Below, piece after piece: positions 1 through 24,693 of a stretch of DNA of 38,491 bases. The position numbers were made by a program, and so were the translations under genes. The DNA is from an uncultured bacterium (lineage in GTDB: Bacteria; CAYUVA01): assembly GCA_964448115.1 (NCBI GenBank), contig CAYUVA010000044.1, positions 1-38,491 of the forward strand, given 5' to 3'. The notes under the pieces are model-generated. The model was given only the letters and a program-made list of their open reading frames with translations, was not told the DNA's origin and did not search any database. How positions within the stretch are numbered: position 1 is the stretch's first letter; every line of letters starts with the position of its first letter.

Positions 1-590
1 CAGTAGGAAGGATACCTTAATAGATCGAACCTGGTGAAATCGTATTTATTGAACTCCCCTTCGCTTGGCGACCATGTTGCCTTGTTGGATACCACTTCAC
101 CGTCGCTCCGATAAAAAAGATTGGGGATATCCTGCAAGGACATATCTTGCGAAATAATAGACTTCACTAACCTCGGAAAAGGCATCTCAGCATCACCTTT
201 TATTATGTAGTCTATTTGCGGTACAAATTGGAGTATCTCTTCAGCGAAGATACTGGCTGTCAAACCTCCAACTATGATAGCAAGGTTTGGATTTACCTGT
301 TTTGCTTGCATGGCAAACACAGCCACATCATAGCTGGTCTGTTCCCAGTGCAATGGTATTGCCAGGATCCGGGGATTCAATTCCTTTATCAATCTCTGGG
401 GGGTTAGCTTGGGTCGAAGTGCTTTCTCAATGCTCCAGTGCGCTATGGCTACTTTTATGCCCTGTTTATCACATTCATTTGCCAGTGAAAAAATACCATA
501 AGGTGGAATATTAACTCTACTGCAGGCTCCATAAGTACCGAAATAACTTCGCCGCTTGGGAATCACCAGGATGAGAAGATCGATTTGCAT
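1..590 (-). CDS. B12 (cobalamin)-binding domain protein, probably a B12-dependent radical SAM enzyme (partial; runs off the left edge)
   Basis: Not in the ORF track. Manual translation from ATG at 590 is open to the edge: MQIDLLILVIPK...IPPYGIFSLANE...LAIPLHWEQTSYDV...AKQVNPNLAIIVGGLTASIFAEEILQFVPQIDYIIKGDAEMPFPRLV...DIPNLFYRSDG. This is the typical N-terminal cobalamin-binding domain of class B radical SAM proteins. The CxxxCxxC motif would lie beyond the window. Confidence 0.8.
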   Translation of the reverse strand, partial: MQIDLLILVIPKRRSYFGTYGACSRVNIPPYGIFSLANECDKQGIKVAIAHWSIEKALRPKLTPQRLIKELNPRILAIPLHWEQTSYDVAVFAMQAKQVNPNLAIIVGGLTASIFAEEILQFVPQIDYIIKGDAEMPFPRLVKSIISQDMSLQDIPNLFYRSDGEVVSNKATWSPSEGEFNKYDFTRFDLLRYPSY

Positions 591-624
591 TATAGTATTT
601 AAGGTCAGATGATTTGGGATTCGA

Positions 625-1806
625 TTATTTCTTGGGCTTCATATAGAATAACCTACCGCCATATAGTTCCTCCTTAAACCTCTGAAAGCCCTCTATCGAT
701 TCGGCTCTCTTGGTCTCATCCACAGAGATAGCCTTTTTTACATACTTTTGACAGTATCCACATTCTTCACAGTTGATTGCATCACAGTCGATATCGATCA
801 TGCCCTCCAGGAATCCATCCAGCTTCTTATTATCAATGTATAAACCGATATCCTTTAGGAATTTATAGGTTCGAGCTAACCTGAGGGGATTTATCTTGAA
901 GGGCTTGAAGACGAAGTTGATCATGGACTTCAATCTTATCCTGCTTTTGTATGGGTAATGAGTAACAAGATCTAATAGATTTCCTTCATAGCTTCTTTGT
1001 GAGTATGCATTGGTGATCCTGATCAATTCATCGGTGGTAAGGTTTCTTTCCACGATCTTGAACTGGTCTATTCCGATTCGCTCGTATAGAGCCAGATCTT
1101 CGGGGCGAATGAAAGTATTGCGCAAAAAATTGATCGGCTCCACAAGGCAGTTTCCCACACAATTGAGCCTGGAATAATCAAGAAAAAATCCCTTAGCAGG
1201 GCTGTCAACTCGGGAAGCCTCGCAGGCATAAAGGTAATGATGAATATTATGGATGCAGTAAAAGGCGCAAAAGAGGTTGACGATGACCTTGAGTCTACCG
1301 GGGGCAGCTTGGGACATCTCGCTTAGCTTCTTGAAGTCCTTGGATAACCTGGTTACCGGAAGGATTATGTTGTCAGCCCCCAGATCAAGCCAGTTCTTGA
1401 GCAATCTTAAACTGGTAACCATTGAATAGCTTGAGACATCGACCTTCAGGTTCGGGTAGTTTCTTTTGATAATGGACAAAAAAAGTGGTAGAGAAACGGT
1501 TACCCGCTGCACATCATTCTCGCTAAGCCAATCGAGCAGCTTGCGCAGGTTTCGTTGTCCTTTGCGAGTAAACTCCCTATTGTGCCAGATCAATGAATTG
1601 ATCAAGTAATTGAAATGGATGCCCCTGGAGTGGGTTTGTTTGAAAAACTCCTCAGCCTGCCGTCTGCTGATATTAGAATAAAAGATCGCCGGTCTGCCGC
1701 TACCGATATCCTTAAATTTGATGGAACCGTAGAACTCGTAGATGCTACTAGTGTCTAACTTTTCCCATATATCTTCACTCCAGTTTGTCGCCACGCTAAG
1801 CTTCAT
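625..1806 (-). CDS. U32 'peptidase' family protein (Fe-S, UbiU/UbiV/RlhA/TrhP superfamily)
   Basis: GSGRP, HFNYLIN, VIVNLFCAFYCIH, FIRPEDL..YE..GI..FKIVER motifs; C-terminal Cys cluster CDAINCEECGYC. Confidence 0.8.
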   Translation of the reverse strand: MKLSVATNWSEDIWEKLDTSSIYEFYGSIKFKDIGSGRPAIFYSNISRRQAEEFFKQTHSRGIHFNYLINSLIWHNREFTRKGQRNLRKLLDWLSENDVQRVTVSLPLFLSIIKRNYPNLKVDVSSYSMVTSLRLLKNWLDLGADNIILPVTRLSKDFKKLSEMSQAAPGRLKVIVNLFCAFYCIHNIHHYLYACEASRVDSPAKGFFLDYSRLNCVGNCLVEPINFLRNTFIRPEDLALYERIGIDQFKIVERNLTTDELIRITNAYSQRSYEGNLLDLVTHYPYKSRIRLKSMINFVFKPFKINPLRLARTYKFLKDIGLYIDNKKLDGFLEGMIDIDCDAINCEECGYCQKYVKKAISVDETKRAESIEGFQRFKEELYGGRLFYMKPKK

Positions 1807-1845
1807 TTTCTCTTATTTAGGGCGATAGACATTCTAATAGCTAAA

Positions 1846-2523
1846 CTAGTCAACGAATCGGTACTTTAACAAGCACCAAAGGGCGGTGAAACCGTCTCGC
1901 CAGGTTATCTTCTTGCCCTCGTGATATTCCCTTCCCGCATAGGAGATGGGCACCTCATAGATGCGATAACCGGCTTTCATCACCTTTGCGGTAACCTCTG
2001 GCTCGAAGTCGAATCGCTTGGCGCGTAGCCTTAGGCTCTTTAGAATATCGGTGCGAAACAGCTTGTAGCAAGTCTCCATGTCCGACAGCGTGGAGTCGTA
2101 AAGCAGATTGGTTACCAGGGTCAAAAATCGGTTGCCCAGGTAATGCCTGAAGAACATGTTCTTGTGTTCGCCGGTGAAGCGAGAGCCATACACGACATCT
2201 GCCTTGCCCTTCAATACAGGCGCTAATAGCTTATGGTAGTCATCGGGATCATATTCAAGATCAGCGTCCTGGATGATCGTTAAATCACCAGTCGCCTCTG
2301 GAATGCCGCTTCTTATCGCAGCACCCTTGCCTTGATTCACCTGATGCCGGATCAGCTTATGATACAATTTCTGATTTTCGGTCAAGAGCTCGTAAGTGCC
2401 ATCAGTCGAACAGTCATCCACTATGATTATTTCCTTTTCGAGATCTACCGCGTTCACCCTGGCGAGTATTTCCAGAATGTACTGGCGCTCGTTAAATACG
2501 GGCATTATGATCGTGAGCTTCAT
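1846..2523 (-). CDS. GT2 glycosyltransferase (DPM1/polyprenol-phosphate glycosyltransferase-like)
   Basis: [57 protein letters not shown]. Confidence 0.92.
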
Positions 2524-9274: not shown

Positions 9275-10788
9275 TAATGGCGCGTTGGCTTTCGTTCTTG
9301 CTTACCTTTTAACATAAGCGCCCTGGTTATCGATTGGCCAATGCGCTCCAGGACCGTCTCTATCTCGTCGAGCTTCTCCTCGGCGTGGCGATGGCTTATC
9401 GGTATGATGTCAAGATAGTTATCTGTATAGGGCTTCCACCTGAGGTTGAAAAGCGGGTGTTCATTCTGTGCAAATACCTCTACAATCGGCACGCCCATGG
9501 CAGCGGCGATATGGCTTCCTGCCGAGTCATAACCGATGAAGAGATCCGAGATGGAGATCATGGTGCATAAGCCCTCCAGTTGACGATCCCAGACTATCAC
9601 CCTTGCCCCCTGCAAAGCCGAGTTCATAACATGGTGTTTATGGTCGATGATTGCAGTCTTGACTCCGTTGGCTTGAAGATGCGAGATAAGGCTATCTGTC
9701 TGTTGGTGCTCATCATGGTTGGCGCCACGGTTGAGCATGGCAACAATCCCTTGCTCTTCGATTAGGCGCTCGAGCAGTCTTTGCTCGAAGGCGCGTGGCA
9801 TCTTCTTTTTGTCATTACCTCCCACTCCCAAGCTGAGCGAGACTAGCTTAGCTGGCCTGCTTTTCCCTATAAGGAGATCCCTCACCCTTCTTCCCAGCTC
9901 AAGGTTAGCATCATCGAGGGCTATAAAGGGCTTTGGTTTATCGCCCTTGCCGAACAGCTCTCCGAGCCACTGAATGGTGTATTCGGTGATACACTTGTTG
10001 CCTTTATTGCCATAGGAACGGCTGTCGAAGAAGTAATACCGGTTGTCATCAGGACACAGGGGCAACAGCCCAAGCTGGGTATATCTCGAATCCGGGTCGA
10101 TGATCAGGTACTGCTGGGGGGTAAGCTCGCTTATGGAGCTTGATATGATTTCCTCCAGGTTGATCCATGCATTGAGCCTTTCGGTAAGGTTGCCGCTTCG
10201 TTGGTAGTTGACCGGCAGTACCGAGAAATTCTCCAGTCCGGCGAACAATGCGCCCATGAAGGGTGCACAGCATAGGATTATCTCTGCATTTGGTGCCAGG
10301 CTGCGGATCTTGGATATTATCACCCCGGTAACCGCAACCTCGGCGCCGACAGTAACCCTTGACAGGATGATCACCTTTTTCAGCTTGCTCAAGTGTGTCG
10401 AATCAAGCGCTTGTAGCCCATCCTTGAGCCTTAGTATCCGGTCGATTAGATCCTTTTGGCTATAGAGTCCGAACTCCTTGAGCTTCGCATCCAGCAGCTC
10501 TGATGGTGGTAGGCTTCGGCAATATTGGACCACCTGGGCGAAAAGTCGGTAGTAAAGCTCGCTGTTTTCAGGCAGGAATGAGTCGCACAGCCTTTCTACT
10601 AGCAGTCCGAACAAGCAATCGACCCCGATGGCTGAAATGGAAGGGTCTTCACTTGATGCCAACTGGCAGAGAAACTCGATATTATCAAAGAGGTACTCTC
10701 CTTTCCCCTGGTACCTGAGATAGAACTGCTCAGCCGCCTCGTATCCTCGTATTTCAGCCTGCCTTGCAGAATTTCGGTTGGCAACCAT
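9271..10788 (-). CDS. GT9 (heptosyltransferase-like) glycosyltransferase with a helical N-terminal extension
   Basis: VIILSRVTVGAEVAVT, SDLFIGYDSAGSHIAAAMGVPIVEVF, RWKPY motifs of GT9. Confidence 0.75.
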   Translation of the reverse strand: MVANRNSARQAEIRGYEAAEQFYLRYQGKGEYLFDNIEFLCQLASSEDPSISAIGVDCLFGLLVERLCDSFLPENSELYYRLFAQVVQYCRSLPPSELLDAKLKEFGLYSQKDLIDRILRLKDGLQALDSTHLSKLKKVIILSRVTVGAEVAVTGVIISKIRSLAPNAEIILCCAPFMGALFAGLENFSVLPVNYQRSGNLTERLNAWINLEEIISSSISELTPQQYLIIDPDSRYTQLGLLPLCPDDNRYYFFDSRSYGNKGNKCITEYTIQWLGELFGKGDKPKPFIALDDANLELGRRVRDLLIGKSRPAKLVSLSLGVGGNDKKKMPRAFEQRLLERLIEEQGIVAMLNRGANHDEHQQTDSLISHLQANGVKTAIIDHKHHVMNSALQGARVIVWDRQLEGLCTMISISDLFIGYDSAGSHIAAAMGVPIVEVFAQNEHPLFNLRWKPYTDNYLDIIPISHRHAEEKLDEIETVLERIGQSITRALMLKGKQERKPTRHY

Positions 10789-10801
10789 GCAATGTTACCC
10801 T

Positions 10802-12178
10802 CTAGTCGATCAATGCAAACTTTGCCCTGAAGTGCCGAAGGATAACCGGATCGAATGTCATCTTGATCCCCCTTACCAGGTGGCGATTTTTATGCAGCTC
10901 GATGATGGAGTCGGCGAGGTACTCTATGTGGGTATTGGTATATACTCTTCTCGGTATTGCAAGTCGCACCAGCTCCAGCTTAGGGTATATCATCTGCCTG
11001 GTCTTGGGATCTAATTTTGCGAACATGACTCCGCCGATCTCGACAGCCCTGATCCCGGCATGAAGGTACAAGGCAACCGTAACCGCCTGGGCGGGGAATT
11101 GGGACTGGGGTAAGTGGGGTGCGAAAGCCATCGCATCCAGATAAATAGCATGTCCACCAAAGGGCTTAAACACCGGCACCTTTGCCTGGTCTAAAAGCTC
11201 GCCCAGGTAGGCGACCTGCCCGGTGCGATAAGCCAGGTAATCCTCCTGTATTGCCTCTTTAAGTCCGATGGCTATGGCTTCCAAGTCCCTTCCCGCCATG
11301 CCTCCATAGGTGGGGAATCCCTCCCATAAGGTCAGCTTTTCCCGCGCCTGGTAGGCAAATTCATCGATGTTGGTGCAAAAGAAGCCGCCGATATTTACCA
11401 GTGCGTCCTTCTTGGCGCTCATGGTGCAGCCATCCGCGTGGGAGAACATTTCCCGGCAGATCTCGATTATGCTTTTATCCGAGTATCCAGGTTCGTCTCG
11501 CTTGATAAAATAGGCGTTCTCGGCGAAGCGGCAGGCGTCGATGAAGAAAGGGATGCCGTATTTTTTATAGATTCGAGCTGCGCCGGCTATGTTGCTCATT
11601 GAGACAGGCTGTCCAGCCAGGTTGTTATTGGTTATGGTCATCATGCCAAGCGGGATATTATCTTTGTTACGCGAGACGAAGTCTGCTAGCTTTTCTAAAT
11701 CAATATTGCCCTTGAAGGGATAGCTTTCAGATGGGATCAAAGCCTTCTCCGGTAACAGGTCGGTAGCGATCCCCTCTACATGCTCGATATTGGCTCTGGT
11801 GGTATCGAAGTGCGAGTTGCTTGGAACCATCTGTTTTGGCTTCACCATGATATTGAACAGGATCTTCTCGGCAGCTCTTCCCTGGTGTACCGGGATGACA
11901 TGTTTGAAGCCGAATATATCCTTTATCGTTTGCTCAAAATGTTGGTAGTTTCTGCTTCCAGCATAAGCCTCGTCTCCCAGCATGATCCCAGACCACTGTT
12001 CCTGGCTCATGGCAGCGGTTCCGCTATCGGTCAGAAGATCGATAAAAATTGCCTCTGATGGGAGGTTGAAGACATTATAATCAGCCTCTTGCATGATCTT
12101 TTTTCGTTTTTCTTCGGACAGCAATCGAATAGGCTCGATCGATTTAATCTTAAACGGTTCCACTGGTGGTTTCGGCAT
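10802..12178 (-). CDS. tnaA: Tryptophanase (beta-eliminating PLP lyase)
   Basis: EPFKIKSIE, IDLLTDSGT, GDEAYAGS, HQGRAAE, HFDTTRA, DACRFAEN, MSAKKD (PLP Lys), EGFPTYGG, RLAIPRRVYT, LRHF. SAKKD and RHF favour tryptophanase over tyrosine phenol-lyase (SGKKD/RFF). Confidence 0.85.
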   Translation of the reverse strand: MPKPPVEPFKIKSIEPIRLLSEEKRKKIMQEADYNVFNLPSEAIFIDLLTDSGTAAMSQEQWSGIMLGDEAYAGSRNYQHFEQTIKDIFGFKHVIPVHQGRAAEKILFNIMVKPKQMVPSNSHFDTTRANIEHVEGIATDLLPEKALIPSESYPFKGNIDLEKLADFVSRNKDNIPLGMMTITNNNLAGQPVSMSNIAGAARIYKKYGIPFFIDACRFAENAYFIKRDEPGYSDKSIIEICREMFSHADGCTMSAKKDALVNIGGFFCTNIDEFAYQAREKLTLWEGFPTYGGMAGRDLEAIAIGLKEAIQEDYLAYRTGQVAYLGELLDQAKVPVFKPFGGHAIYLDAMAFAPHLPQSQFPAQAVTVALYLHAGIRAVEIGGVMFAKLDPKTRQMIYPKLELVRLAIPRRVYTNTHIEYLADSIIELHKNRHLVRGIKMTFDPVILRHFRAKFALID

Positions 12179-12381
12179 TCTATTACCCTTCCCTTTGCTT
12201 AACCTTCAACGGCACTACATTCCTTACAATGAATCAAGTAGCATATTGCAATGCATAGAGTTGGTTTTCTTATCACAAGGTGTGAGTTTACAAAAATGTG
12301 TCTAAAATATAAAGTTCAACCTGATGTGCGATTCAAGATGTTCGACAAATGATAGGTAACGCTGGTTAAGCCATAACAACC

Positions 12382-14427
12382 ATGTCTAGTTACAACAGCA
12401 AAGGAATCTGGAAGGATAGCAAACCATCTGATGTCTTAGATCCCTACCCCAAGAGCCTGCGCAGTTCCTACCATGCGCTGATCGCTGGGTGCATAGCCGG
12501 GCTATTCTTCGGCGTGGCGGAGCTGCTAGATATCCTTTCCCATCATGACTTGGGCAAGTTTTCCTTTTTCTATGCAACTGTGATTACCGATATTCTGCTT
12601 TTCGATGCGTTGCTTGGTGCTTTGATAAGCTTGTTATTCAACATCGTGATATATCTTGTTTTATCTTGTTTTGTACATTTCACGGTGCAGTTTTACAAGA
12701 TCCTCGATTTTTCTTTCACCATAGCGCTTTTGGCAAGCTCATTTTACTTGTTCAATGTATTCCTTCGACAGCATGAGCCAAAGAGTTTGCTAAGCTTTTC
12801 GGGACTCGGCACGACCGGTATAATCTTCGCTTGTCATTTTATGATCTTCTTCGGTATCTTGCTATTTCTCAGCGATAAGGTCTATCCAAGAAAGCCCAAT
12901 CATTTTGCACTTGAGCCTTTCAAGTATCTATTTTTCCCCGTTCTTCTCTCCTTTATAACCCTATGTTGTTTTAGCATAACCAGCCGTCTTTCCTTTGAGA
13001 GGCAATCCATGATGGTCTTTGAAGAGCCGAAGAAACTGGAGGAGAAGACCTTCAATATCATCCTGATTTTGCTGGATACCCTTCGAGCGGATCATCTGGG
13101 CGCTTATGGTAATCCGTGGATAAAGACCCCCAACCTCGACTGGGTGGCGCAAAATGGCGGCACCATCAGTAATGCTTATACGAATATACCGCTAACATCC
13201 CCCGCTATCGCATCAATATTCAGCGGGCTAAGCCCGACTAAAAGCTATGTTTGGCACAATAACATGCCCTATCAGGGGGATGAAGATCGCCTGTTAGCGG
13301 CAGCATATAAAAGGGTCGGCTTCAAGACCGCAGCCTTCATCTCCGGGTTTCCGTTGCGCAAGGGGATGTGTAACCTGGATGGAGGTTTTGAGATATATGA
13401 CGATTACTTCAGCCCCTATTTCTTGCTCCCGGACCCGGTCTTCGATATTGCGTTATTTCGCCTGCTCGATCGTCTGGGTTTATACAAGCCGATGCTTTTA
13501 ATAGAGCGCGATTGCAGGGCAACCACCGAACGGGCGCTTGCCTGGATATATAGTAATTACAATCGAAAGTTTTTCATGTTTCTCCATTATTTCGATGCCC
13601 ATACGCCTTACATACCATCAGAGCAGGCTTTATCGGCGCTCGAAGGAAGTATCCCTGAACACCTCGAGGATGGTTATTTCCCAAGAGAATACGAGAGGAT
13701 CAAGGTGGATCAGCGAAACAAGTTCCCTAGCGATGAAAGAAGGATAATCAAGGCATTCTACGCCTCGGAGATCGAAAAGATAGACCAACAAATAGGAAAG
13801 CTACTCAGGGCGCTGAAAAATTACAGCCTTTTACACAAGACCATTCTTTTGATCGTTTCCGACCATGGTGAGTCCCTGGGCGAGCACAACTATTTTTTCG
13901 ATCACGGCAGGGATCTGTACCAGCCATGCCTGCATGTGCCGTTTGTAGGATACCTTCCCAGAGCCTTTCCGCTTCCGAGCAATTACCGGTCCGGTATGTG
14001 CATCGATGTGGCAGTGGACCTGGTCGATCTCTATCCATGGATCCAGCGCATAAATGGTATTGCGCCCAGGTTCGATTCCGAGGGAGAATCATTTTACCTG
14101 GCAGAAGGAGCACAGCCGGACAGAAGCCCTGCCATCCTTTCACAAACCTCATCATTTCAGGCAGATGGCAACCGATATTTCAGCGTCCTGGAAGGTAACC
14201 ATAAGCTAATAACGGATACGGTCGGCAATCTTCAGCTTTATGACCTGGACAGGGATCCCTTGGAACAGATTAACCTGGTAGATTCAAAGCGTAAGCCAAA
14301 GGATTACCCCCAAATGCTTGAGCTATTAAACGATTTCAAGAAAGAGGCGAGCCGGGAGTATAAGGTTACAATCCAGGCTGATCCCAAGGTAAAACAGACC
14401 CTACGCACCTTGGGGTATCTAAAATGA
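12382..14427 (+). CDS. Membrane-anchored sulfatase-like hydrolase/transferase (alkaline phosphatase superfamily)
   Basis: About 5 N-terminal TM segments; NIILILLDTLRADHLGAYG, HYFDAHTPY, VSDHGESLGEH, DHG, LYDLDRDPLEQINL, C-terminal LRTLGYL. Confidence 0.85.
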   Translation: MSSYNSKGIWKDSKPSDVLDPYPKSLRSSYHALIAGCIAGLFFGVAELLDILSHHDLGKFSFFYATVITDILLFDALLGALISLLFNIVIYLVLSCFVHFTVQFYKILDFSFTIALLASSFYLFNVFLRQHEPKSLLSFSGLGTTGIIFACHFMIFFGILLFLSDKVYPRKPNHFALEPFKYLFFPVLLSFITLCCFSITSRLSFERQSMMVFEEPKKLEEKTFNIILILLDTLRADHLGAYGNPWIKTPNLDWVAQNGGTISNAYTNIPLTSPAIASIFSGLSPTKSYVWHNNMPYQGDEDRLLAAAYKRVGFKTAAFISGFPLRKGMCNLDGGFEIYDDYFSPYFLLPDPVFDIALFRLLDRLGLYKPMLLIERDCRATTERALAWIYSNYNRKFFMFLHYFDAHTPYIPSEQALSALEGSIPEHLEDGYFPREYERIKVDQRNKFPSDERRIIKAFYASEIEKIDQQIGKLLRALKNYSLLHKTILLIVSDHGESLGEHNYFFDHGRDLYQPCLHVPFVGYLPRAFPLPSNYRSGMCIDVAVDLVDLYPWIQRINGIAPRFDSEGESFYLAEGAQPDRSPAILSQTSSFQADGNRYFSVLEGNHKLITDTVGNLQLYDLDRDPLEQINLVDSKRKPKDYPQMLELLNDFKKEASREYKVTIQADPKVKQTLRTLGYLK

Positions 14428-14467
14428 TGATGCTGATAAGAAGCAAAAACCCTTCAGAAGGCATGGT

Positions 14468-16120
14468 ATGAATAAAAGAAAACCAAGCGACAAAGGATTA
14501 TTAGCAGCAGGGTTGCTGGTGGTCATAGTCGGTCTTTGCGCTATTTTAATCTTATTATCCTTTGACAAATTGCCTATCTATGTCGATGATGCCTTGATTA
14601 CCTACCGATACTCGTGCAATTTAGCACAGGGCAAGGGAGCGGTCTTCAATGAGAACGAGCGGGTAGAGGGTTACACAAATTTTCTATGGATGCTAATCTT
14701 ATCATTTTTCTGCGATCCTGGTGATGAGTACCTGGTGATACACGCCTCCACCGTGCTGGGAATCGTTTTTACCTTGGGAGCCTTGATCGTTCACTTTCTT
14801 TTATGTCGTCTATTGATGCAAGGCAATGCTCTTTATGCTCTGTTGCCAGTATTGCTACTGGGAGTAAATGGCGCTTACTGGATCTGGGCATTGTGCGGTC
14901 TTGAGGGACCTATGTTCATTTTCTGGGTTTTGCTGGGATTGTATCTATTATTTCGTAAGCAATCCAAAGGTAGTCCGCTCGCTTATGTTTTTCTATTTCT
15001 AGCCTCGCTGACCAGGCCGGAGGGTCTTATTTTCGCGCTGTTAAGCTTCCTATATCCATTCAAGCTGCAAGGTTCTCCAAGGGTACAATTTTCCTCTCGT
15101 AAGATAGTCGGAATAGCGATCTTTCTTGTTCCCTACCTGGCTTATTATATCTGGCGATATTATTACTATGGTTATCTGCTGCCCAATACCTTTTATGCGA
15201 AGACTGGTGGCGGTTGGCACCAGATGTTGCGTGGCGCAGAGTATATCCTTGATTTTCTTCACTTTTATGGCTTGCCTTTGCTGATTATACTAGCTGGCTA
15301 TCTCTTTTATCACACAAAGAAGGCTGAGGATCTATTCATTTCGTTGCTTTGCATGGTTTACTTTGCATATATAATTTACATTGGCGGGGACTGGATGCCG
15401 TTCTACAGGTTCCTAGCTCCTGTATTGCCGTTGCTTTACCTATTAGGGGGGCTTGGATTCAGGAGCATTATGGTTGGCCTGGGGAAGACCTCTGATAGCA
15501 GATGGTTGGCATTGGTAATAGCTGTTATTCTAGCCATCTATACCCTGCTTCCTGCATTGAACAGCAAGCACAGGGACAACCTGTTGTTTGAGGACAATCT
15601 TACCCGCATGAGGATAAAGATAGGCAAGTATCTCAAAGCCAACGCCTCACCGGATGCGGTCATCGCTATCGGTGCGGTCGGCGCTATACCTTATTTCAGT
15701 GGTCTTAAGACTATAGACATGCTCGGGCTGGTCGATGAGCATATAGCACATACAAAGAATCTTTCCTTTGGTTCTGCCGGGCATGAGAAGGGAGATCCGG
15801 AATACATATTCAACCGCAAACCGGATTATATATTCCAACTGGCTGCATTGACTGATGAACCAAAGTCGTTCGATGAGTTCGTGCATCATTTTCGGAATCA
15901 TCGTTACAGCAAGCTGTATAACTCGGAGCACTTCAAGGAGTTCTATAGGCTGGAGAACATGCCGTTGGATGGCAGGTTTCTGACCTACTTCAAGCTGAAA
16001 TCAGTCCAGGATCGCAAGTTTTTATTCGAGCTGCCCACCCTTGACAGAAAAAAGCCGAAGGAGTTGGATCCACCAGACGATCCTGCGTCTTCTGTGCACA
16101 CAGACCGAATCATTCACTGA
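14468..16120 (+). CDS. Polytopic GT-C-fold membrane glycosyltransferase-like protein
   Basis: DDALITYRYSCNLAQGKGAVFNENERVEGYTNFLW, GLEGP, LTRPEG, LLPNTFYAK, GGDWMPFYRFLAP, IDMLGLVDEHIAH; about 11 TM helices. Confidence 0.7.
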   Translation: MNKRKPSDKGLLAAGLLVVIVGLCAILILLSFDKLPIYVDDALITYRYSCNLAQGKGAVFNENERVEGYTNFLWMLILSFFCDPGDEYLVIHASTVLGIVFTLGALIVHFLLCRLLMQGNALYALLPVLLLGVNGAYWIWALCGLEGPMFIFWVLLGLYLLFRKQSKGSPLAYVFLFLASLTRPEGLIFALLSFLYPFKLQGSPRVQFSSRKIVGIAIFLVPYLAYYIWRYYYYGYLLPNTFYAKTGGGWHQMLRGAEYILDFLHFYGLPLLIILAGYLFYHTKKAEDLFISLLCMVYFAYIIYIGGDWMPFYRFLAPVLPLLYLLGGLGFRSIMVGLGKTSDSRWLALVIAVILAIYTLLPALNSKHRDNLLFEDNLTRMRIKIGKYLKANASPDAVIAIGAVGAIPYFSGLKTIDMLGLVDEHIAHTKNLSFGSAGHEKGDPEYIFNRKPDYIFQLAALTDEPKSFDEFVHHFRNHRYSKLYNSEHFKEFYRLENMPLDGRFLTYFKLKSVQDRKFLFELPTLDRKKPKELDPPDDPASSVHTDRIIH

Positions 16121-16130
16121 TATCGACAGC

Positions 16131-16189
16131 GTGGGGGCAATCCCCTGTGGTTGCTCAATTTGAGGGCAGGCATGGGGACCTGCTCCTAC
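16131..16189. repeat. Inverted pair of GTAG-type REP elements (REPIN-like doublet)
   Basis: + strand GTGGGGGCAATCCCCTGTGGTTGCTC (16131-16156) and - strand GTAGGAGCAGGTCCCCATGCCTGCCCT (16163-16189), each an imperfect hairpin after a GTAG/GTGG tetranucleotide. Confidence 0.75.
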
Positions 16190-16317
16190 AGTATTTGTCC
16201 CAAAAGACATTCATCATTTTGAACGCATATTGTTATAAAATACGCGCCGGATTGTGAATAATCGTAACCTTTTAACCGGATCGAACGGCGATGATGTTGG
16301 TCTGGATCATATCTCAT
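16186..16317 (-). pseudogene. Truncated REP-associated tyrosine transposase (RAYT/TnpA-REP, Y1 HUH family) N-terminus
   Basis: Manual translation MRYDPDQHHRRSIRLKGYDYSQSGAYFITICVQNDECLLGQIL* matches the characteristic RAYT N-terminus (HRRSIRLKGYDYSQxGAYFxTIC). There is no HUH motif or catalytic Tyr, and REPs flank it. Confidence 0.85.
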
Positions 16318-16333
16318 TGTTCATATTTCCATA

Positions 16334-16360
16334 GGGGCAGACACCCGGTTTTGTCCCTAC
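16334..16360 (-). repeat. GTAG-type REP element upstream of the RAYT remnant
   Basis: Minus strand GTAGGGACAAAACCGGGTGTCTGCCCC, an imperfect hairpin. Confidence 0.7.
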
Positions 16361-16615
16361 GATGAGGTTTCAATGATCGTCGGTTTGATCATTCAAATTA
16401 TCGACCATTTCGCATATATCTCGTTCTTATTCTACTACCTGCCTCATTTCACAATATTTGGAATCTCTATCATACTGCTACATGGCAAATCTAATCCAAT
16501 TATCCAATGACTTGACATTCGGGTTGTATCACTGACAAGATCCCTTCTGTTTATGATAATTAGAGCTACAGGTATGACTGCCAATAAATGATAAATGCTA
16601 TATGGAGCTGAGTGA

Positions 16616-19060
16616 ATGGCGCTTTTTAGAAAAAGTAAAGTAAAAAAGTTGCAGCAAAGGGCACTCGAAAGAATCGAAAATCCCCTTGAGGCAATGAAAC
16701 AGGTAGATGAGCTACTGAAACTATCAGCAGATGATGACATACCTATATTGATCGAGAAGATCCTCTCAGCGCCAGCCGCCGATGAGTATCGAGAAGAGAT
16801 TCTATCTTGGGCTGCCGAGAGCTACGATAAACTGGGTGATACGACCAGGGCGGGGCAGCTTTACTCCGAGTTGCTCCGAGCATGTCCGAACTCCCCCTTT
16901 TCCATCAAAGCAAAGATTAGGCTCGCTGATCTAGCCATTGCCGAGCCAGATAAATATTCGAACCTCATGGAACAATTCGGACTTGGTCGCTTCTGTAAAG
17001 AACAGGATGCAGGCTCTTTGCCGAAGGAGCATCAGGTTCGATTCATCTTTACTAAGGCTCGATATCTTCTAGCCATCAGCGCCCTGTCTGAGGGAATGAA
17101 GTTGCTTGAAAGTTTGAAGGCATCGGGCGAACTTGCCGGGCTGGCTCCTTCGACAATAGTCGAATACTATCTTCTTTACGCCGATTTTGTTATCGATCAG
17201 CAGCCAATCGACACACAGAGACTGGAGGATACATATCGCTCTGCGCTGGAGCACGCCCATCAGGATCGGGATCGTGCCATAGTCTATTTGCATTATGGCA
17301 GGGCGCTGGCAGAAAGCTCGCTTAACCAGGCTATAGAGAAGTACGAGAACGCAGCCCGCTATTTCCAGAGCAGCAAGGAGACGAGACAAAAGGCGGTAGA
17401 GACAGGTATCGAACTGGCTGAGCTTTACCTTAAACATAATCAGGCGCAGCAAGCGATATTCGAGCTTGAAAAGACCCTGAAGAACCTGAATCCACAAAGG
17501 GTTCAGAGGCTCCAGATATTGCGACTTATGGCTTCGATATTTCTAAAAAGGTCAAGGCTTAAGGAGGCATTATCGGCAGCTCAATCAGCCATGCAACAGG
17601 CGCAATCATTGGCGGAAAGGGCACTGGTATCACTAGATCTCGGGGAGATAAAGGCTGCCATGGAGGATTATTCCTCGGCTGCCTTGGACATACAAAAGGC
17701 TTTGGAATGCGATGAATTACCGCAAAATCAGTGCTGGAAGGGAATGGCACTGCTAGGCAGGTGCGAGTTGGAACTGGGTAATCCTGATCAGGCGGTATCT
17801 ATTTTGAATGATCTGGTAAAGGAGTGCGACTCGACCGAGATCTTGTCCCAGGCTCATTATCTACTGGGGATGCGACTGCTCAAGGAAGGGAAGAGCGCAA
17901 GCGACCTAGTTAACGGTGCCATGAGCCTGAGGGATTTCCTTCGCCTCACCGATGATGTGGTGGCTAGGGCATCGGTAATAGAGGAATTAAGAAACTTGCG
18001 TGCCAGCCTAGCCATAGGCGAACAAGAGGTCCTTTTTTCTCAGGCGGAGCGCTTCAAGCTCGATGAAATATTGACTGATACGATCGGGGTGGGGGATCTC
18101 TTCGAGCGCCTCAAGGTCGGCTTGGGTAAGACCAGAAAGAGCCTAGTCATGCGCATCGAGAGCATCCTTTCCGAGGCATCTGAGGTCAACGAGGAGCTGC
18201 TCGACCAGGTGGAAGAAACGCTCGTATTATCGGATCTAGGTATCGATACGACCATGAATATAATGGATTACCTTCGCGGTAGATTCAGACATAAGCAACT
18301 GACCCAACCGGAGGAGATCTTATATTTCATCAAGGCACAACTGGAGGAAATCCTTCTGGAACACGGGGATGTGAAGGTGGATGTCGATGCTCATAAGCCT
18401 TTTGTTTTCTTGATCGTGGGAGTAAATGGCACCGGTAAGACAACATCGATAGCCAAGCTGGCATACAAGTATCGCAAGGAGGGGAAGCGGGTGCTGCTGG
18501 TGGCGGCAGACACCTTCCGCGCCGGCGCCATCGAACAGCTAGCGATCTGGGCAGAGCGGGTCGGCGCTGATATCATCAAGCACAAGGAAGGCTCCGATCC
18601 TACAGCAGTGGTCTATGATGCGATAAACGCCTCCGGTTCACGAGATTATGATGTTATAATCATCGATACGGCAGGTCGCTTGCATACCAAGATCAACCTG
18701 ATGGAGGAGATGAAGAAGCTGCGTCGCGTAACCAACCGTGAGCTTCCCGGTGCTCCACATGAGACTTTGCTCGTATTGGATGCCACCACCGGGCAAAACG
18801 CAATAAACCAGGCAAAGGTCTTTAACGAGGCGCTTACCTTGAGCGGAATAATCCTAACCAAGCTGGATGGTACCGCAAAGGGCGGGATTGTGATCACTAT
18901 CTCGCACGAGCTAAAGATACCGGTCAAGTTCATCGGAATCGGCGAAAAGATGTATGATCTAAGGGAGTTCAAGCCTGAAGAGTTCATCGAGGCGCTCTTC
19001 GGGGAGAGAACCATGTCAAGCGGATCCAGCAAGATCGAAACAATCGAGCCATCCGAATAA
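16616..19060 (+). CDS. ftsY: Signal recognition particle receptor FtsY with a ~490-aa N-terminal TPR-like domain
   Basis: NG domain from about aa 493 (LFERLKVGLGKTR): GVNGTGKTT, DTFRAGA, DTAGRLHTK, LVLDATTGQN, TKLDGTAKGG, FIGIGEK. The N-terminus has TPR-like helix pairs (LGDTTRAGQLYSELL, LGRCELELGNPDQAVSILNDLV, AHYLLG). Confidence 0.93.
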   Translation: MALFRKSKVKKLQQRALERIENPLEAMKQVDELLKLSADDDIPILIEKILSAPAADEYREEILSWAAESYDKLGDTTRAGQLYSELLRACPNSPFSIKAKIRLADLAIAEPDKYSNLMEQFGLGRFCKEQDAGSLPKEHQVRFIFTKARYLLAISALSEGMKLLESLKASGELAGLAPSTIVEYYLLYADFVIDQQPIDTQRLEDTYRSALEHAHQDRDRAIVYLHYGRALAESSLNQAIEKYENAARYFQSSKETRQKAVETGIELAELYLKHNQAQQAIFELEKTLKNLNPQRVQRLQILRLMASIFLKRSRLKEALSAAQSAMQQAQSLAERALVSLDLGEIKAAMEDYSSAALDIQKALECDELPQNQCWKGMALLGRCELELGNPDQAVSILNDLVKECDSTEILSQAHYLLGMRLLKEGKSASDLVNGAMSLRDFLRLTDDVVARASVIEELRNLRASLAIGEQEVLFSQAERFKLDEILTDTIGVGDLFERLKVGLGKTRKSLVMRIESILSEASEVNEELLDQVEETLVLSDLGIDTTMNIMDYLRGRFRHKQLTQPEEILYFIKAQLEEILLEHGDVKVDVDAHKPFVFLIVGVNGTGKTTSIAKLAYKYRKEGKRVLLVAADTFRAGAIEQLAIWAERVGADIIKHKEGSDPTAVVYDAINASGSRDYDVIIIDTAGRLHTKINLMEEMKKLRRVTNRELPGAPHETLLVLDATTGQNAINQAKVFNEALTLSGIILTKLDGTAKGGIVITISHELKIPVKFIGIGEKMYDLREFKPEEFIEALFGERTMSSGSSKIETIEPSE

Positions 19061-19188
19061 GAGGCAAGATTATTAATGCCATCTCCGAGAGTAAAAGACC
19101 AGGTGCCTAATTTGGTATTCAAAAATACCTTGAATTTTGATAAATTATTATGCCAGGACTTGGGAACCCAAAATAAGAGGGATATGTC

Positions 19189-20415
19189 ATGAAGAGATAT
19201 TCTTTAATCGTTTGTATGTCAGCGCTTCTCTGCCTTTGCCTGGTTTATTGCAGCAGCGACTCTGATTCGGTCAAGATAAACGGGGTGGTTACAACCCAGG
19301 GAGAGCAAACCATATTGCATGTCTGGGGGACAAACTACGAGATGGGGTATGCGCATGGGTATCTTATGGCTGAGCGCATTATGGATCTTGCCAATGGGTA
19401 TGTACCGGATGCATTGCCTCCTTACTGGTACGATTATGCAATGGAACTGTACCTTCGCATCTATATGGTGCCTGATGAGTTCAAGGACGAATTCCAGGGC
19501 TTGCTCGATGGCATAGTAGATAGCGGGGTTGATACTTATATGCCCGAATACGACAAGAACCTGGAGTTGAACGATCTATACATGATGAACAGCCTGGCAG
19601 ATATTTCCGGTCTATTTTGCTCTAGCGTAACCGGCTGGGGAGAGGGAACAAGTGGCACCGATCTGAATGGTGACCTGGTTATCTGTCGAGACATGGACTT
19701 CAACGACAGCGATGAACATCATCTCGGCAACCATTCGATAATCATAACCTATGATCCGTCAGAGGCGGGCAAACAGCGCTGGATTTCCTTTGCATTCCCT
19801 GGCTTCATAGCTTGTCTCTCTGGAATGAACCAAAGCGGAGTGGCTGCTTTGCTGGATCTGGGCAACAACTCGACACCGCCGAGCCAGGAGGGGAACTGCG
19901 TGCCCATCAACCTGACCATGCGCATGGGTATCGAGACCGATGACTACAACAATGATGGAATAAACGATCCCGATGATGTCTTCCAGGCGATAAAAGACCA
20001 CGAGCGAGCCGGTTCCTTCGATATAGCCGTTGTCCATCCCTATGATCCCGAATCAGAACAGCCACCAGCTTATGTTATCGAATGTCGCCATAAGGAGTAT
20101 GTGGCCAGGTACCCAGAGGATGAGCCGAACCTTGCTCCCTGGTTCGTCGCGGTAACCAATCACCACCGCAAGCTCGATCCTCCAATCAATTGCCATCGCT
20201 ATGATATCATCGAATCAATGGTCATGGAGGACTACAAGATAGATACACAGGAAGCCTGGGACATAATGGCAGCCTCCAGCCAGAGAAGCACGCTGCATAC
20301 CATCGAGCTTCTGCCTAATTCAATGGAGATAATAGTAGCCTTCACCAAGAACGAGACCACCGCACCGTACCGCCCCAAGGAACACTACAAGTTCGATGAT
20401 CTGTTTACCTATTAA
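19189..20415 (+). CDS. C45-family Ntn-hydrolase (acyltransferase/peptidase), probable lipoprotein
   Basis: Cys-rich signal peptide with lipobox-like LVYC; LHVWGTNYEMGYAHG, autocleavage Cys in LFCSSVTGW, CRDMDF, FPGFIACLSGMN, VTNH. Confidence 0.75.
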   Translation: MKRYSLIVCMSALLCLCLVYCSSDSDSVKINGVVTTQGEQTILHVWGTNYEMGYAHGYLMAERIMDLANGYVPDALPPYWYDYAMELYLRIYMVPDEFKDEFQGLLDGIVDSGVDTYMPEYDKNLELNDLYMMNSLADISGLFCSSVTGWGEGTSGTDLNGDLVICRDMDFNDSDEHHLGNHSIIITYDPSEAGKQRWISFAFPGFIACLSGMNQSGVAALLDLGNNSTPPSQEGNCVPINLTMRMGIETDDYNNDGINDPDDVFQAIKDHERAGSFDIAVVHPYDPESEQPPAYVIECRHKEYVARYPEDEPNLAPWFVAVTNHHRKLDPPINCHRYDIIESMVMEDYKIDTQEAWDIMAASSQRSTLHTIELLPNSMEIIVAFTKNETTAPYRPKEHYKFDDLFTY

Positions 20416-20608: not shown

Positions 20609-21118
20609 ATGGTGAAAAATATACTGCCTTCATCGACACCTGCTTGGATGGTTGCTGCTTTTCTAGGCTTGATGATTATTTTAATTCCAGCGGTTCACTC
20701 CCGTGCAGATCCTGATTATGGGATATTTCCCGACCTGCACGACTATAACATGAGCGCGTCGCTTCCAGGTGAAATGAACCAGCCAGTGCTCGACCCGCTA
20801 ACCCGCTCCATGCTCCTCCCTGGCTGGGGTCAATATGCGAATGGGCAAAAGGTCAAGGGATCTGCACTCATATCACTCTTTGGCATCGGTATTGGCATGT
20901 CTCTGTATTACGGGATCGAGGGGAGCGGGTACTATGATGAATACAAGGATGCCGATAACCCCGCTCAGGCGTCCAAGTTTCGACATCTCACCAAACAGGC
21001 AGATAAAAGACGCAACCAGGCGATAATGGCTACTGGAATTATTTGGGGCTTGAGCCTGCTCGATATGCTGCTGAGCGATAAGGATCGGGGAAAAAATGAT
21101 GAACTAGACCAGCCATGA
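20609..21118 (+). CDS. DUF5683-like membrane/secreted protein
   Basis: RSMLLPGWGQYANGQKVKG motif, hydrophobic helices, RRNQ...IIWGLSLLD. Confidence 0.65.
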   Translation: MVKNILPSSTPAWMVAAFLGLMIILIPAVHSRADPDYGIFPDLHDYNMSASLPGEMNQPVLDPLTRSMLLPGWGQYANGQKVKGSALISLFGIGIGMSLYYGIEGSGYYDEYKDADNPAQASKFRHLTKQADKRRNQAIMATGIIWGLSLLDMLLSDKDRGKNDELDQP

Positions 21119-21119
21119 T

Positions 21120-23000
21120 ATGAAAAGCAGGGGTATAGTGCCGAAGGAAAATATATCCTGTCTTGTTATAATTGTGCTCATAATATCGGTTGTCCAATAC
21201 GATCCTATATTTGCCAATACCAGCCAATTTGCAAAGCAAGGAACGACCATCATCGGAGATGCATTGATAATAGAGCCCGAGGCAGGAGTTATATACTCCA
21301 GGAACACGGTAAAAATTACCTTCGATAATATCGAGATATATTGTGGTGCACTATGGCTAACTCTTTATGATAACAGGATGTTTTGCACAAAGAGCGTATA
21401 TATTGCATCAAAACAAAAGATCATCGCCAAAGGCTCAGGGCTGATAGTTGACCTAATATCAGGGGAGGGGATCTTATACAAACCATCGAATGCCAAACTG
21501 GCACGGCTGGATGGGGTAATGAAGGTGGGTGATCTAAATATCACCCTGGCTAACTCGCCTCCTGGTGCTGCCATTGAAGATGGCTTTAACCTGGATGAAG
21601 CCATGCGCCCCTTTCGCTATTATCGCTGTACTAAGGCGGTGATAGAACCTGGAATAAGACTGAAGCTCAAGGAGGCGGTCCTGGTCATAGAGGGAGCTGA
21701 TATCATTGAGCTTGGATCACTTGATTTCTCGCTAAGCCAGGGATTTCGGCGCAGCGGCTTCTCCCTTCGTAGCCTGGGCATAAACAATCATCTGGGAAAA
21801 GGGATTACCACTGGATATGGCTGGCTCCTTGACTCCTATTCTTTCTTGGATCTCTCAATTGGATACAGGGACATAGGGGATGAAACCTTGCTCGATACCG
21901 ATGTCATATTCACCAGTTCCTGGGAGAGTTGGCGAATAAAACTGGCTAATCGCTATCGGATGGATTACTTCTTGCAACCTAATCTGCAGATCGCTTGTCC
22001 TTTAGGCGAGCAGACCCGAATACATAGCCAGATTAGCTATTATGATGATTTGCACCTAGACTTGGATAGGTTTCATTTCGATCTGGGGGTCGAATCACCT
22101 GGCTGGAGCACCTCGGTGAGATACAGCGACCTGGCTGGCTATAACCGCAACCTTCAGTTGAGCCTTGGCTTTAGGCTGGGGAACCTTCATTTCCAGTTGG
22201 AAAACGCCTTGATAACCAGCTATGGAAATGCATTCCGAGTTCGGTGGGATCGACTGGATAGTCGATTCTCAACCACATATCGAGGGAGGCATTTTTCTTG
22301 TCGGCTCATCTATTCCGCTGGGGATATCAAGGATAGCTCTGATGACTTCGAGTTTGTAGCGCTTGAGCTGCAAAGCCGATCAATACCAATAGGCGGCTCA
22401 CTCTTTTCCCTTCAGGTCGGCTCTACTAGCCTATTACAGCGATACTTACCATCGGTAAACAACTATCGAGGTTCCTACAGCCAATGGCTTGCGCTTTATG
22501 CTCCTAGCATCCCCTTGGGAGACAAAACCTTTTTATTACCCAAGGCACAACTAAGCGGGCTCCAGGTGGAAGGCATGAACGGTTCCACTATCATATCTAG
22601 CTCACTAGCTCTATATCGATACCTGGTTAATAACACGCACATCGCATTGCGCCATAGCTACAGCTTTATTGCGGATAATAGCTCTGCCTGGTTGACTTAC
22701 GGCAAGGCAAGCCAGTTCATGGAAGCACTGCTAGCTATAGCGCCCAATGATGGATACTCGTTCGATGTCCGCTACCTGCAAAGCTTGACTGATGGTGAGG
22801 CTGAGTCTTTGAGATGTAGCGCACAGATTAGGCTGATCAGGGATTGGAGAATCGAGTTCGAGAATCTATACAATTTCGAGCTGGATGATTTCTATGCCTC
22901 CAGGCTGCTAGTGAGCAAAACCATAAGGAACGGGTATCTTGGGGGAGGGTATGATTTCCTGCGCAATGAATACTATCTCTTATTATCGCAGGTGCTGTAG
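21120..23000 (+). CDS. Outer-membrane beta-barrel protein, possibly LptD-like
   Basis: N-terminal hydrophobic signal, an OstA/beta-jellyroll-like segment (IEIYCGALWLTLYDNRMFCTKSVYI), then a long run of amphipathic beta strands to the C-terminus. Confidence 0.45.
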   Translation: MKSRGIVPKENISCLVIIVLIISVVQYDPIFANTSQFAKQGTTIIGDALIIEPEAGVIYSRNTVKITFDNIEIYCGALWLTLYDNRMFCTKSVYIASKQKIIAKGSGLIVDLISGEGILYKPSNAKLARLDGVMKVGDLNITLANSPPGAAIEDGFNLDEAMRPFRYYRCTKAVIEPGIRLKLKEAVLVIEGADIIELGSLDFSLSQGFRRSGFSLRSLGINNHLGKGITTGYGWLLDSYSFLDLSIGYRDIGDETLLDTDVIFTSSWESWRIKLANRYRMDYFLQPNLQIACPLGEQTRIHSQISYYDDLHLDLDRFHFDLGVESPGWSTSVRYSDLAGYNRNLQLSLGFRLGNLHFQLENALITSYGNAFRVRWDRLDSRFSTTYRGRHFSCRLIYSAGDIKDSSDDFEFVALELQSRSIPIGGSLFSLQVGSTSLLQRYLPSVNNYRGSYSQWLALYAPSIPLGDKTFLLPKAQLSGLQVEGMNGSTIISSSLALYRYLVNNTHIALRHSYSFIADNSSAWLTYGKASQFMEALLAIAPNDGYSFDVRYLQSLTDGEAESLRCSAQIRLIRDWRIEFENLYNFELDDFYASRLLVSKTIRNGYLGGGYDFLRNEYYLLLSQVL

Positions 23001-23592: not shown

Positions 23593-24693
23593 CTACTGAT
23601 AATCCCTGGTAATGGCGGCGATTATCTCCTCTTCTTCGAGGAAGGCACTAAACAACTTCTTGTCATAAGCCCTTCGTACCGCCACCTGTGGCTTGATCAG
23701 CTTCTGGCTGACCAGTCGATACAGGTCCTGATCCATTGTCTGCATCCCGGTCTCCAGTTGGTCGCTGGTCTGTATCAGGGTATATATCTGGAAGAACTTG
23801 CCATCCCTAATGACATTGGAAAGCCCATAAGTCGAGGTAAGTATCTCAAATGCAGCGACTCTTCCTTTTCCATCAGCGCGCTTGAAGAGATCCTGTGCGA
23901 TAACACCCTTTAGCGAGACCGAGAGCATCGTCTTTATATGCTCCTGTTCCTTTTCGGGGAAGATATCGACTATACGGCTCAGTGTCTCGGCGGCGCTGTT
24001 GGTATGAAGTGTTCCGAAAACAAGCACACCGGTCTCGGCGGCGGTCAATGCCAGGCTTATGGTCTCAAGATCGCGCATCTCTCCTATCAAAAGCACATCC
24101 GGCGACTCCCGAAGTGCCGAACGAAGCGCATCGGCAAAGGTCTTGCAGTGAGTCTTGACCTCGCGGTGAAATATGATCGATTCCTTGGGTTGATGAACGA
24201 ACTCTATGGGTTCCTCGATAGTTATGATATGCTTGCAGTATTTGCTGTTGATGGAGTCTATTATAGCCGCCTGGGTGGTGGATTTACCGCTACCGGTTGG
24301 ACCGGTAACTAGCACTAGCCCACGCTCCATCTCTGCAAAGCGATGCAGTACCTTTGGGAGACCGAGCATCTCGATGGTCTGTATATCAGCCGGTATCACC
24401 CTGAATGCCGCCCCGATGCCCTTCCTTTGCATGAATATATTGACGCGAAAGCGAGCTAAACCCGGAATCTCATAAGAACAATCAAGCTCCCATTCCTCCT
24501 CGAATCGTCTCCTTTGTGATTCATCGAGGATCTCGTAGATGAAGCGGTTGCCATCATAACGAGACAGAGGTCTGAAGCCTATGGGGATAAGGTCGCCATT
24601 ATACCTTATGTATGGCTGGTGTCCGACACCGATGTGCAGATCGCTAGCGCCCTGTTCTACAACCAGCTTCAGAAATGAATCGATCCTAGCCAT
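23593..24693 (-). CDS. pilT: PilT/PilU-family retraction ATPase
   Basis: GASDLHIGVG, RFRVNIF, GPTGSGKSTT, TIEEPIEF, LRESPDVLLIGEMRD, GTLHTNSA, GMQTMDQ. Confidence 0.92.
   Translation of the reverse strand: MARIDSFLKLVVEQGASDLHIGVGHQPYIRYNGDLIPIGFRPLSRYDGNRFIYEILDESQRRRFEEEWELDCSYEIPGLARFRVNIFMQRKGIGAAFRVIPADIQTIEMLGLPKVLHRFAEMERGLVLVTGPTGSGKSTTQAAIIDSINSKYCKHIITIEEPIEFVHQPKESIIFHREVKTHCKTFADALRSALRESPDVLLIGEMRDLETISLALTAAETGVLVFGTLHTNSAAETLSRIVDIFPEKEQEHIKTMLSVSLKGVIAQDLFKRADGKGRVAAFEILTSTYGLSNVIRDGKFFQIYTLIQTSDQLETGMQTMDQDLYRLVSQKLIKPQVAVRRAYDKKLFSAFLEEEEIIAAITRDYQ

Follow-up and report, generated by a model that had tools for sequence, protein, structure and literature searches.

What does a receptor of the signal recognition particle (SRP), the carrier of newly made membrane proteins, do with a folded repeat domain in the place where the receptor of Escherichia coli carries an acidic tail? 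The question is raised by the ftsY gene of contig CAYUVA010000044.1 from an uncultured bacterium (assembly GCA_964448115.1, GTDB lineage CAYUVA01), which was analysed over its whole length of 38,491 nucleotides (the window) and in which a predicted tetratricopeptide repeat (TPR) superhelix precedes the GTPase core of an FtsY of 814 aa. According to the sequence comparisons and structure predictions presented here, it is near certain that this superhelix occupies the position of the A-domain, between a basic segment at the N-terminus and the helix alphaN1. The reading favored here, to which we assign a probability of about 0.6, is that the protein would be the sole SRP receptor of its organism, working in an ordinary SRP cycle with the TPR array doing the work of the A-domain as a docking or gating module.

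The first-pass annotation, made by a model from the DNA letters, had claimed a complete SRP-GTPase NG domain, and this domain is found at residues about 504-796, with matches to Pfam SRP54_N and SRP54 and to the NCBIfam ftsY equivalog TIGR00064 (361.2 bits over aa 524-795, the cut-off being 260.7). On the same protein, the models of Ffh and FlhF remain far under their own cut-offs. The motifs G1 to G5 (GVNGTGKTT, DTFRAGA, DTAGR, TKLD, and GIGE) coincide with invariant columns of the family alignment, and the model of the NG domain superposes on FtsY structures with template modeling (TM) scores of 0.89-0.95 on the target in Foldseek. As judged from its sequence, the 814-aa protein is a bacterial SRP receptor FtsY with a canonical and complete NG GTPase core. 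Of the 49 Pfam families listed for the protein, the 25 best include no SRX-type family and match its N-terminus with TPR-class models only, which speaks against a receptor of the eukaryotic SR-alpha type, where an SRX domain at the N-terminus binds the membrane GTPase SR-beta (SR-beta was not searched).

Ahead of this core, the N-terminal ~490 aa had been read as a "TPR-like" helical-repeat region, a description that the analysis bears out and sharpens. Pfam families TPR_14 (35.3 versus a cut-off of 23.5), TPR_6 (34.3 versus 26.3), and TPR_19 (29.2 versus 25) pass their cut-offs within aa 61-300, and other TPR families lie just under cut-off out to aa 403. The AlphaFold2 model of the N-domain alone has a predicted local distance difference test (pLDDT) of 90.0 and a predicted TM score (pTM) of 0.77, with 27 helices over aa 2-489 and pLDDT values of 85-98 across most of aa 23-467; the full-length model has a mean pLDDT of 86.5 and a pTM of 0.55. 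Both models, built from shallow alignments of 10 and 12 sequences, respectively, are predictions and not solved structures. When the N-domain is compared with the Protein Data Bank by Foldseek, the top match is the consensus 8-TPR superhelix 8chy (E 3.3e-8, TM 0.71 on target), followed by the TPR domain of O-GlcNAc transferase (OGT), Ctr9, and subunits of APC/C and IFT-A. Also, the family profile of the N-domain matches engineered consensus TPR proteins with E values of 1.7e-76 and 4e-54. Therefore, from the matches of its model and profile, the N-domain is predicted to be a true TPR array of ~12-13 repeats. Its best-conserved helix, aa 236-250 (LNQAIEKYENAARYF, consensus A..YE.AL.Y), scores 2.09 against an array mean of 1.39, conservation scores and invariance being computed here and below over 23 non-redundant orthologues. 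The composition of the N-domain is 15% D/E, 13% K/R, and 44% hydrophobic; a classic acidic A-domain of the E. coli type was considered and rejected, given this 15% D/E, versus 30-34% in the acidic FtsYs of 613-707 aa that the search for relatives returned, and a fold predicted at pLDDT 90.

The array is flanked by two segments that recall the lipid-contact motifs of E. coli FtsY. In the available part of PMC5533587, alphaN1 of the E. coli protein supports a stable membrane-bound mode that requires F196, whereas alphaA1, its first 14 residues, is basic and supports a dynamic membrane mode; the A-domain is described there as acidic, poorly conserved, inhibitory, and bypassable by truncation, with roles that are partly unclear. 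The A-domain also stabilizes the FtsY-SecY complex, according to the available part of PMC2064314. In the 814-aa protein, phmmer pairs GDLFERLKVGLGKTRKSL, at the TPR/NG junction, with E. coli FtsY GGFFARLKRSLLKTKENL, so that residue 195 of the 2yhs chain corresponds to residue 495 and F496 stands opposite F196. Residues R498, L499, and L503 of this helix are invariant in the orthologues, and outside the NG domain no element is better conserved (2.52, versus 1.39 for the TPR array and 2.70 for the NG domain). The alignment indicates that alphaN1, a putative membrane-targeting helix, has been retained where the NG domain starts. At the other end, the protein starts MALFRKSKVKKLQQRALE and contains the basic stretch MALFRKSKVKKLQQR, residues 2-19 having a net charge of +6, so the short basic N-terminal helix of the first-pass annotation is present. 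The N-termini of the orthologues are variants of M-x-L-F-x-x-x-K-x-[RK]-K-L, and their 18-residue segments, picked by a simple motif rule, carry a net charge of at least +3 in 19 of 23 cases. The conservation of this helix (1.65) exceeds the N-domain mean of 1.39. By analogy, the basic N-terminal helix would be a candidate counterpart of the alphaA1 lipid-binding motif.

The genome (86 contigs, 3.98 Mb, 94% complete) contains three SRP-type matches, and the 814-aa ftsY is the only one above the TIGR00064 cut-off, which answers within this 94%-complete genome whether it is the only ftsY. The second is Ffh (248 bits, in a 456-aa frame); the third, a weak match, was rejected as an FtsY because it is a RecD2-type helicase. 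Moreover, a small SRP RNA is found (69.1 bits, the gathering score being 40), together with SecY, in an ORF (open reading frame) of 436 aa, and YidC. Thus, the targeting system looks ordinary apart from its TPR-bearing receptor.

The same design is found in other uncultured bacteria. A search of long proteins with the NG region gave, among the 120 best of 7994 scored, 11 of 786-832 aa with a non-acidic N region (P0001-P0007, P0017, P0092, P0010, and P0052), which are colinear with the 814-aa FtsY from end to end; 9 of the 11 have precomputed Pfam TPR matches, P0010 and P0052 having none. In a BLASTP comparison of the N-domain with P0001, aa 199-505 align with aa 199-501 at 29% identity (E 2e-21). 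The database labels of these ~800-aa relatives are "FtsY" or "fused signal recognition particle receptor". Searches that started from the N-domain or from the whole alignment returned other proteins: a word-index search with aa 1-500 gave none of 8000 candidates at E <= 0.001, and an exhaustive phmmer comparison of aa 1-505 with 1.84 billion representatives yielded 76 matches (best 2.1e-11), of which 10 were checked and all 10 are plain TPR proteins lacking SRP54. The profile of the full-length alignment A1 found 54 proteins of generic TPR type and, when run on genome contigs, at least 80 ordinary FtsY loci matching in the NG part alone, and the ESM Atlas search gave no usable match.

The source genome is the sole member of its phylum in a set of 199,900 species genomes; therefore, the 200 genomes with which it was compared are spread across bacteria and related to it at the domain level. 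In this sample of 201 genomes, the source included, 172 have a match at E <= 1e-60. The full-length TPR-FtsY profile matches in 2 of the 200 others, G109 and G191, and partially in G164. Within the phylum of G109, TPR-FtsY occurs in 9/9 genomes, with two of the nine frames cut or partial, and within the phylum of G191 in 11/14, the three misses being G022 (94% complete, with a 222-aa FtsY fragment), G211 (60% complete), and G213 (78% complete). The last 600 residues of the G218 frame are the same as in P0004, to which NCBI gives the name Candidatus Schekmanbacteria. In all five genomes checked from the two phyla, nothing but the long TPR frame exceeds the ftsY cut-off. The relatives thus encode a single fused gene and not two separate ones (9/9 and 11/14 genomes), and the comparison of these genomes indicates that TPR-FtsY is kept as the sole FtsY through whole small phyla. 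The design had also been called unusual, which holds across the sample, where its full form is present in only 2 of 200 other genomes, but not within at least two small phyla, where it is the norm.

Two further long FtsY proteins of the sample bear on this design. The FtsY of G032, an unrelated genome, is shorter (695 aa) and has a ~400-aa N region of balanced composition with TPR_19 and TPR_2 at aa 146-214; TPR-type N-domains on FtsY may thus have arisen more than once. The FtsY of G164 matches the TPR-FtsY profile only from position 346 and may belong to the family as a highly diverged member. Other long FtsY frames were discarded, either as Arg-rich and over-extended (G085, 863 aa, open 1069; G078, 881, open 929; G058, 473, open 635) or, in the case of G051, as being of the acidic type.

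In a tree of the NG domain with 121 sequences, the TPR forms fall in two groups of six. The source FtsY groups with P0001, P0004, P0092, P0010, and P0052 (Shimodaira-Hasegawa-like approximate likelihood ratio test, SH-aLRT, 94), and the other group has a support of 99. The TPR trait needs at least two changes on this tree. However, because the well-supported branches force only one, the tree suggests that a single origin with losses and several origins are both possible. By SecY identity (65-67%), the six genomes nearest to the source out of the 200 others include G022, G191, and G109, but this similarity fails as proof of one group of TPR-FtsY phyla, since the ranking interleaves these three with G115, G143, and G046, whose FtsY frames have 304-335 aa.

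The gene itself is a single frame, open throughout as the first-pass annotation had claimed, with no stop or frameshift ahead of the NG domain; its ATG is the first in-frame start after a stop. The 495-nt gap on its 5' side contains the sigma-70-like promoter match given in Table 1 and no + strand ORF of at least 80 aa. This promoter is a match to the consensus only, in a region that gives 9 such sites versus 4.5 expected from shuffles. Regarding the assembly, a single 8467-nt contig from run X1 spans 16400-19200 with 0 differences, although X1 may be the source of the DNA. Two more runs of the same sample (X2 and X3) gave contig pieces that are identical to ftsY and leave 17434-18091 uncovered. 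The read evidence across the junction, where the first-pass annotation had proposed a coverage check, is hence weak.

Table 1. Features of the TPR-FtsY gene and protein, of its neighborhood, and of related loci discussed in the text.
Feature	Sequence	Position	Strand	Remarks
ftsY	window	16616..19060	+	814-aa TPR-FtsY, predicted as the only SRP receptor gene of the genome; ORF list, Pfam, NCBIfam, genome scan
Sigma-70-like promoter match	window	16532..16560	+	CTGACA, 17 nt spacer, GATAAT; 10/12; ~55 nt 5' of the start codon
Shine-Dalgarno-like GGAG	window	16604..16607	+	8 nt before the ftsY ATG; read from the sequence
Basic N-terminal helix	window	16619..16669	+	aa 2-18 (ALFRKSKVKKLQQRALE); pLDDT 61-69
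TPR superhelix	window	16682..18016	+	aa 23-467; ~25 predicted helices, 12-13 helix pairs; Pfam, AlphaFold2, Foldseek, profile
Connecting helix, TPR array to NG	window	18041..18082	+	aa 476-489; AlphaFold2; L482 common to 87% of orthologues
alphaN1-type amphipathic helix	window	18092..18145	+	aa 493-510 (GDLFERLKVGLGKTRKSL), TPR/NG junction; phmmer alignment
N domain, SRP54_N four-helix bundle	window	18149..18340	+	aa 512-575; Pfam E 3.7e-09, AlphaFold2 model
G domain, SRP54-type GTPase	window	18398..19000	+	aa 595-795; Pfam E 4.9e-80, G1-G5 intact
Short C-terminal tail	window	19013..19057	+	aa 800-814; predicted disordered, pLDDT <50; alignment ends variable, not conserved
Sulfatase-family membrane protein	window	12382-14427		681 aa
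Protein directly upstream of ftsY	window	14468-16120	+	550 aa; without a Pfam match at E <= 0.001; many long hydrophobic stretches
First gene downstream of ftsY	window	19189-20415	+	408 aa; lipoprotein-like N-terminus (MKRYSLIVCMSALLCLCLVYCSS); no Pfam match
DUF5683 protein	window	20609-21118	+	downstream of ftsY
626-aa protein	window	21120-23000	+	no Pfam match; downstream of ftsY
254-aa TPR protein	L115	7213-7977	+	equivalents in L109, L113, L114, L116, L118
TPR-bearing ftsY of G032	L130 (G032:C3)	239-2323	-	Pfam; genome unrelated
FtsY of G164	L092 (G164:C41)	1-2301	-	767 aa; 471-aa balanced N region; no Pfam TPR match

The neighborhood of the gene differs between lineages, and none of the genes that flank ftsY in the window (Table 1) recurs beside it in the others. 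In the window, the sulfatase-family protein and the 550-aa protein upstream may be a cell-envelope modification pair, and two minus-strand neighbors at 23593-24693 (366 aa) and 24898-27648 (916 aa) look like paralogues because they fall in the same similarity cluster of an all-against-all BLASTP. In the phylum of G191, ftsY lies between a gene of S-adenosylmethionine (SAM)-hydrolase type, a small 254-aa TPR protein, and riboflavin genes; the small TPR protein stands just 5' of TPR-ftsY in 6 of the 7 loci compared from that phylum, within a conserved block. In the phylum of G109, ftsY adjoins either an NAD-kinase-like gene or a GFO/IDH/MocA oxidoreductase gene. Also, at locus L117 (G203:C4), an open frame of at least 2646 aa (10480-18420, +) begins beside TPR-ftsY.

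If these observations are taken together as a mechanism, TPR-FtsY would act in an ordinary SRP cycle, where Ffh and a 4.5S-type RNA would bring ribosome-nascent chain complexes to SecYEG/YidC. The TPR array would take over the jobs of the A-domain, holding the receptor near the membrane and translocon and gating the exposure of alphaN1, in the form of a rigid platform for protein docking in place of a charged flexible tail. Within this reading, the chance that the array has a specific partner is roughly even. The likeliest class of ligand would be a short peptide or a tail belonging to a component of the translocon, the ribosome, or a chaperone; the first-pass annotation had suggested that the array could bind chaperones, the translocon, or specific cargo. 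Co-folding of the TPR domain with the SecY of the genome gave scores of 0.00 and 0.00, which speak neither for nor against a contact.

Three alternatives concern the gene product itself. That the fusion of a TPR gene with ftsY is an artefact of assembly or of a frameshift is scarcely credible: although the genome is a draft and the junction is spanned only by a run that may be its source, the same colinear frame occurs in independent assemblies of two phyla and in metagenomic proteins, the genome has no separate ftsY, and the partial contigs of X2 and X3 show no differences. Because colinear full-length frames occur in >20 other assemblies, the sequences argue that the TPR-NG fusion is not an assembly accident. 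It is highly improbable that the protein is a specialized SRP-type GTPase paralogue instead of the general SRP receptor. There are GTPases of this type, such as FlhF, that carry an additional N-terminal domain and perform special tasks; nonetheless, the score of the protein exceeds the FtsY equivalog cut-off and falls far short of those of Ffh and FlhF, and a second FtsY is absent from the genome and from the five relatives checked. It is very unlikely that the working receptor is a short FtsY that consists of NG only and is initiated internally, with the long frame rarely or never fully translated. The NG+1 form of E. coli FtsY alone supports targeting, according to the available part of PMC5533587, and TTG503 and ATG512 exist in frame. 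However, TTG503 is preceded by a weak AAGG and ATG512 by no Shine-Dalgarno-like motif, so that just before the NG domain there is no Shine-Dalgarno-led internal start of the kind that the first-pass annotation had named as a threat to its reading, and starts at these codons would remove part or all of alphaN1. A GGAG lies 8 nt 5' of the ATG at 16616, and the first 500 codons are open and colinear in all orthologues, whose N-termini share a motif.

The remaining alternatives concern the work of the array. The main rival, which we consider somewhat unlikely, is that the TPR array would have no partner of its own and would be a folded stand-in for the A-domain that spaces the lipid motifs and auto-inhibits alphaN1 until SRP binds. 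The low sequence conservation of the array, its mostly structural conserved positions, and the lack of a conserved partner gene nearby speak for it, as does the E. coli A-domain, which is likewise poorly conserved, inhibitory, and bypassed by truncation in the available part of PMC5533587. However, a folded array of ~450 aa is costly and yet stays open and colinear in >20 genomes of at least three lineages, and the helix at aa 236-250 is clearly better conserved than the rest (2.09 versus 1.39). Quite unlikely is a dedicated docking platform that would bring a specific partner to the receptor, for example a ribosome-associated factor, a chaperone, or, through its cytosolic tail, SecY, YidC, or another insertase. 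If true, the receptor would be a hub like Sec72, Tom70, or SGTA, coupling SRP to a second and possibly post-translational route.

Several points weigh against the reading of the array as the docking or gating module of a sole receptor. The array evolves fast (mean conservation 1.39 versus 2.70 for NG), and its conserved positions are mostly the structural Ala and Leu of TPR repeats; this pattern is as compatible with a spacer or a regulator as with docking. Although both domains are predicted with confidence, their mutual position in the full-length model is undefined because the pTM is just 0.55. Also, the hydrophobic moment of the N-terminal helix is modest (0.29) and in many orthologues the helix ends in a TPR-like "...NP" motif, so that it may simply cap the array and could equally be read in that way. 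When the source locus and 12 others were compared, no gene family was shared by all three lineages, and the neighbors of ftsY are housekeeping genes (riboflavin synthesis, SAM-hydrolase-type, NAD-kinase-like); therefore, the gene context names no partner. The TPR/NG junction is spanned only by the likely source run, X2 and X3 leaving 17434-18091 uncovered. Finally, the full-length 814-aa protein is a prediction from its gene, and the sequencing runs listed include none of RNA.

A full-text literature search, which covered PMC2881027 and PMC4452313 in the parts available and left most subscription journals outside, found no description of a TPR-FtsY, and among the matches listed for Schekmanbacteria nothing concerns SRP. 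The design thus appears to be undescribed so far. It is a clear and testable departure from the textbook A-domain, but within a well-understood machine. Domain accretion with TPRs is common in bacteria. In this case, whole lineages would have swapped an acidic tail for a rigid protein-interaction scaffold while keeping alphaN1 and the candidate counterpart of alphaA1, a natural experiment on whether the A-domain is there to act as a spacer, to auto-inhibit the receptor, or to recruit partners. If there is a ligand for the TPR array, the protein would be the first SRP receptor of bacteria to include an adaptor domain, in parallel to the added subunits of eukaryotes. Moreover, the protein is predicted to fold well and could be tested in FtsY-depletion strains of E. 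coli without culturing its host.

A comparison with E. coli FtsY (2yhs, 2qy9, 7o9h) shows an NG domain that is 45-46% identical, with TM scores of 0.91-0.95 on the target, a conserved alphaN1 including the Phe that matches F196, a basic segment at the extreme N-terminus, and, in each organism, a single receptor with Ffh and a small SRP RNA. Nonetheless, the E. coli protein has an acidic A-domain of ~195 aa, as given in the available part of PMC5533587, whereas a predicted TPR superhelix of ~450 aa with balanced charge stands here. The Thermodesulfobacteriota-like acidic FtsY proteins from metagenomes (613-707 aa; P0022, P0040, and P0053) are alike in their NG domain (53-55% identity) and in a long N-terminal extension that begins with the basic motif MLGWFKKKFSKKKK, but that extension has 30-32% D/E and no Pfam domain, in contrast to the 15% D/E and the TPR array of the 814-aa FtsY. 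By sequence comparison, the true family of this protein is that of the ~800-aa TPR-FtsYs of uncultured bacteria (P0001-P0007 and others, including those of the G109 and G191 phyla), which share its colinear layout, N-terminal motif, junction helix, and length, although the identity of their N-domains to that of the 814-aa FtsY is just 14-22%.

For the array itself, the best structural and profile matches are the TPR domain of OGT (1w3b) and engineered consensus TPR arrays (8chy, 9qhb), which have unrelated functions and no GTPase, the match being one of fold only. Among eukaryotic targeting factors, SRP72, Sec72, Tom70, and Sgt2/SGTA are TPR-bearing, and TPR clamp domains of the Hop, Tom70, and Sec72 type hold an EEVD-like C-terminal tail in a carboxylate clamp made of three repeats. 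These factors resemble the 814-aa FtsY in placing a TPR array on a protein-targeting machine, a functional analogy only. They differ in that they are not fused to an SRP GTPase and in that no specific homology was found, the weak match of the family profile to SRP72 (E 5e-10) reflecting generic TPR similarity.

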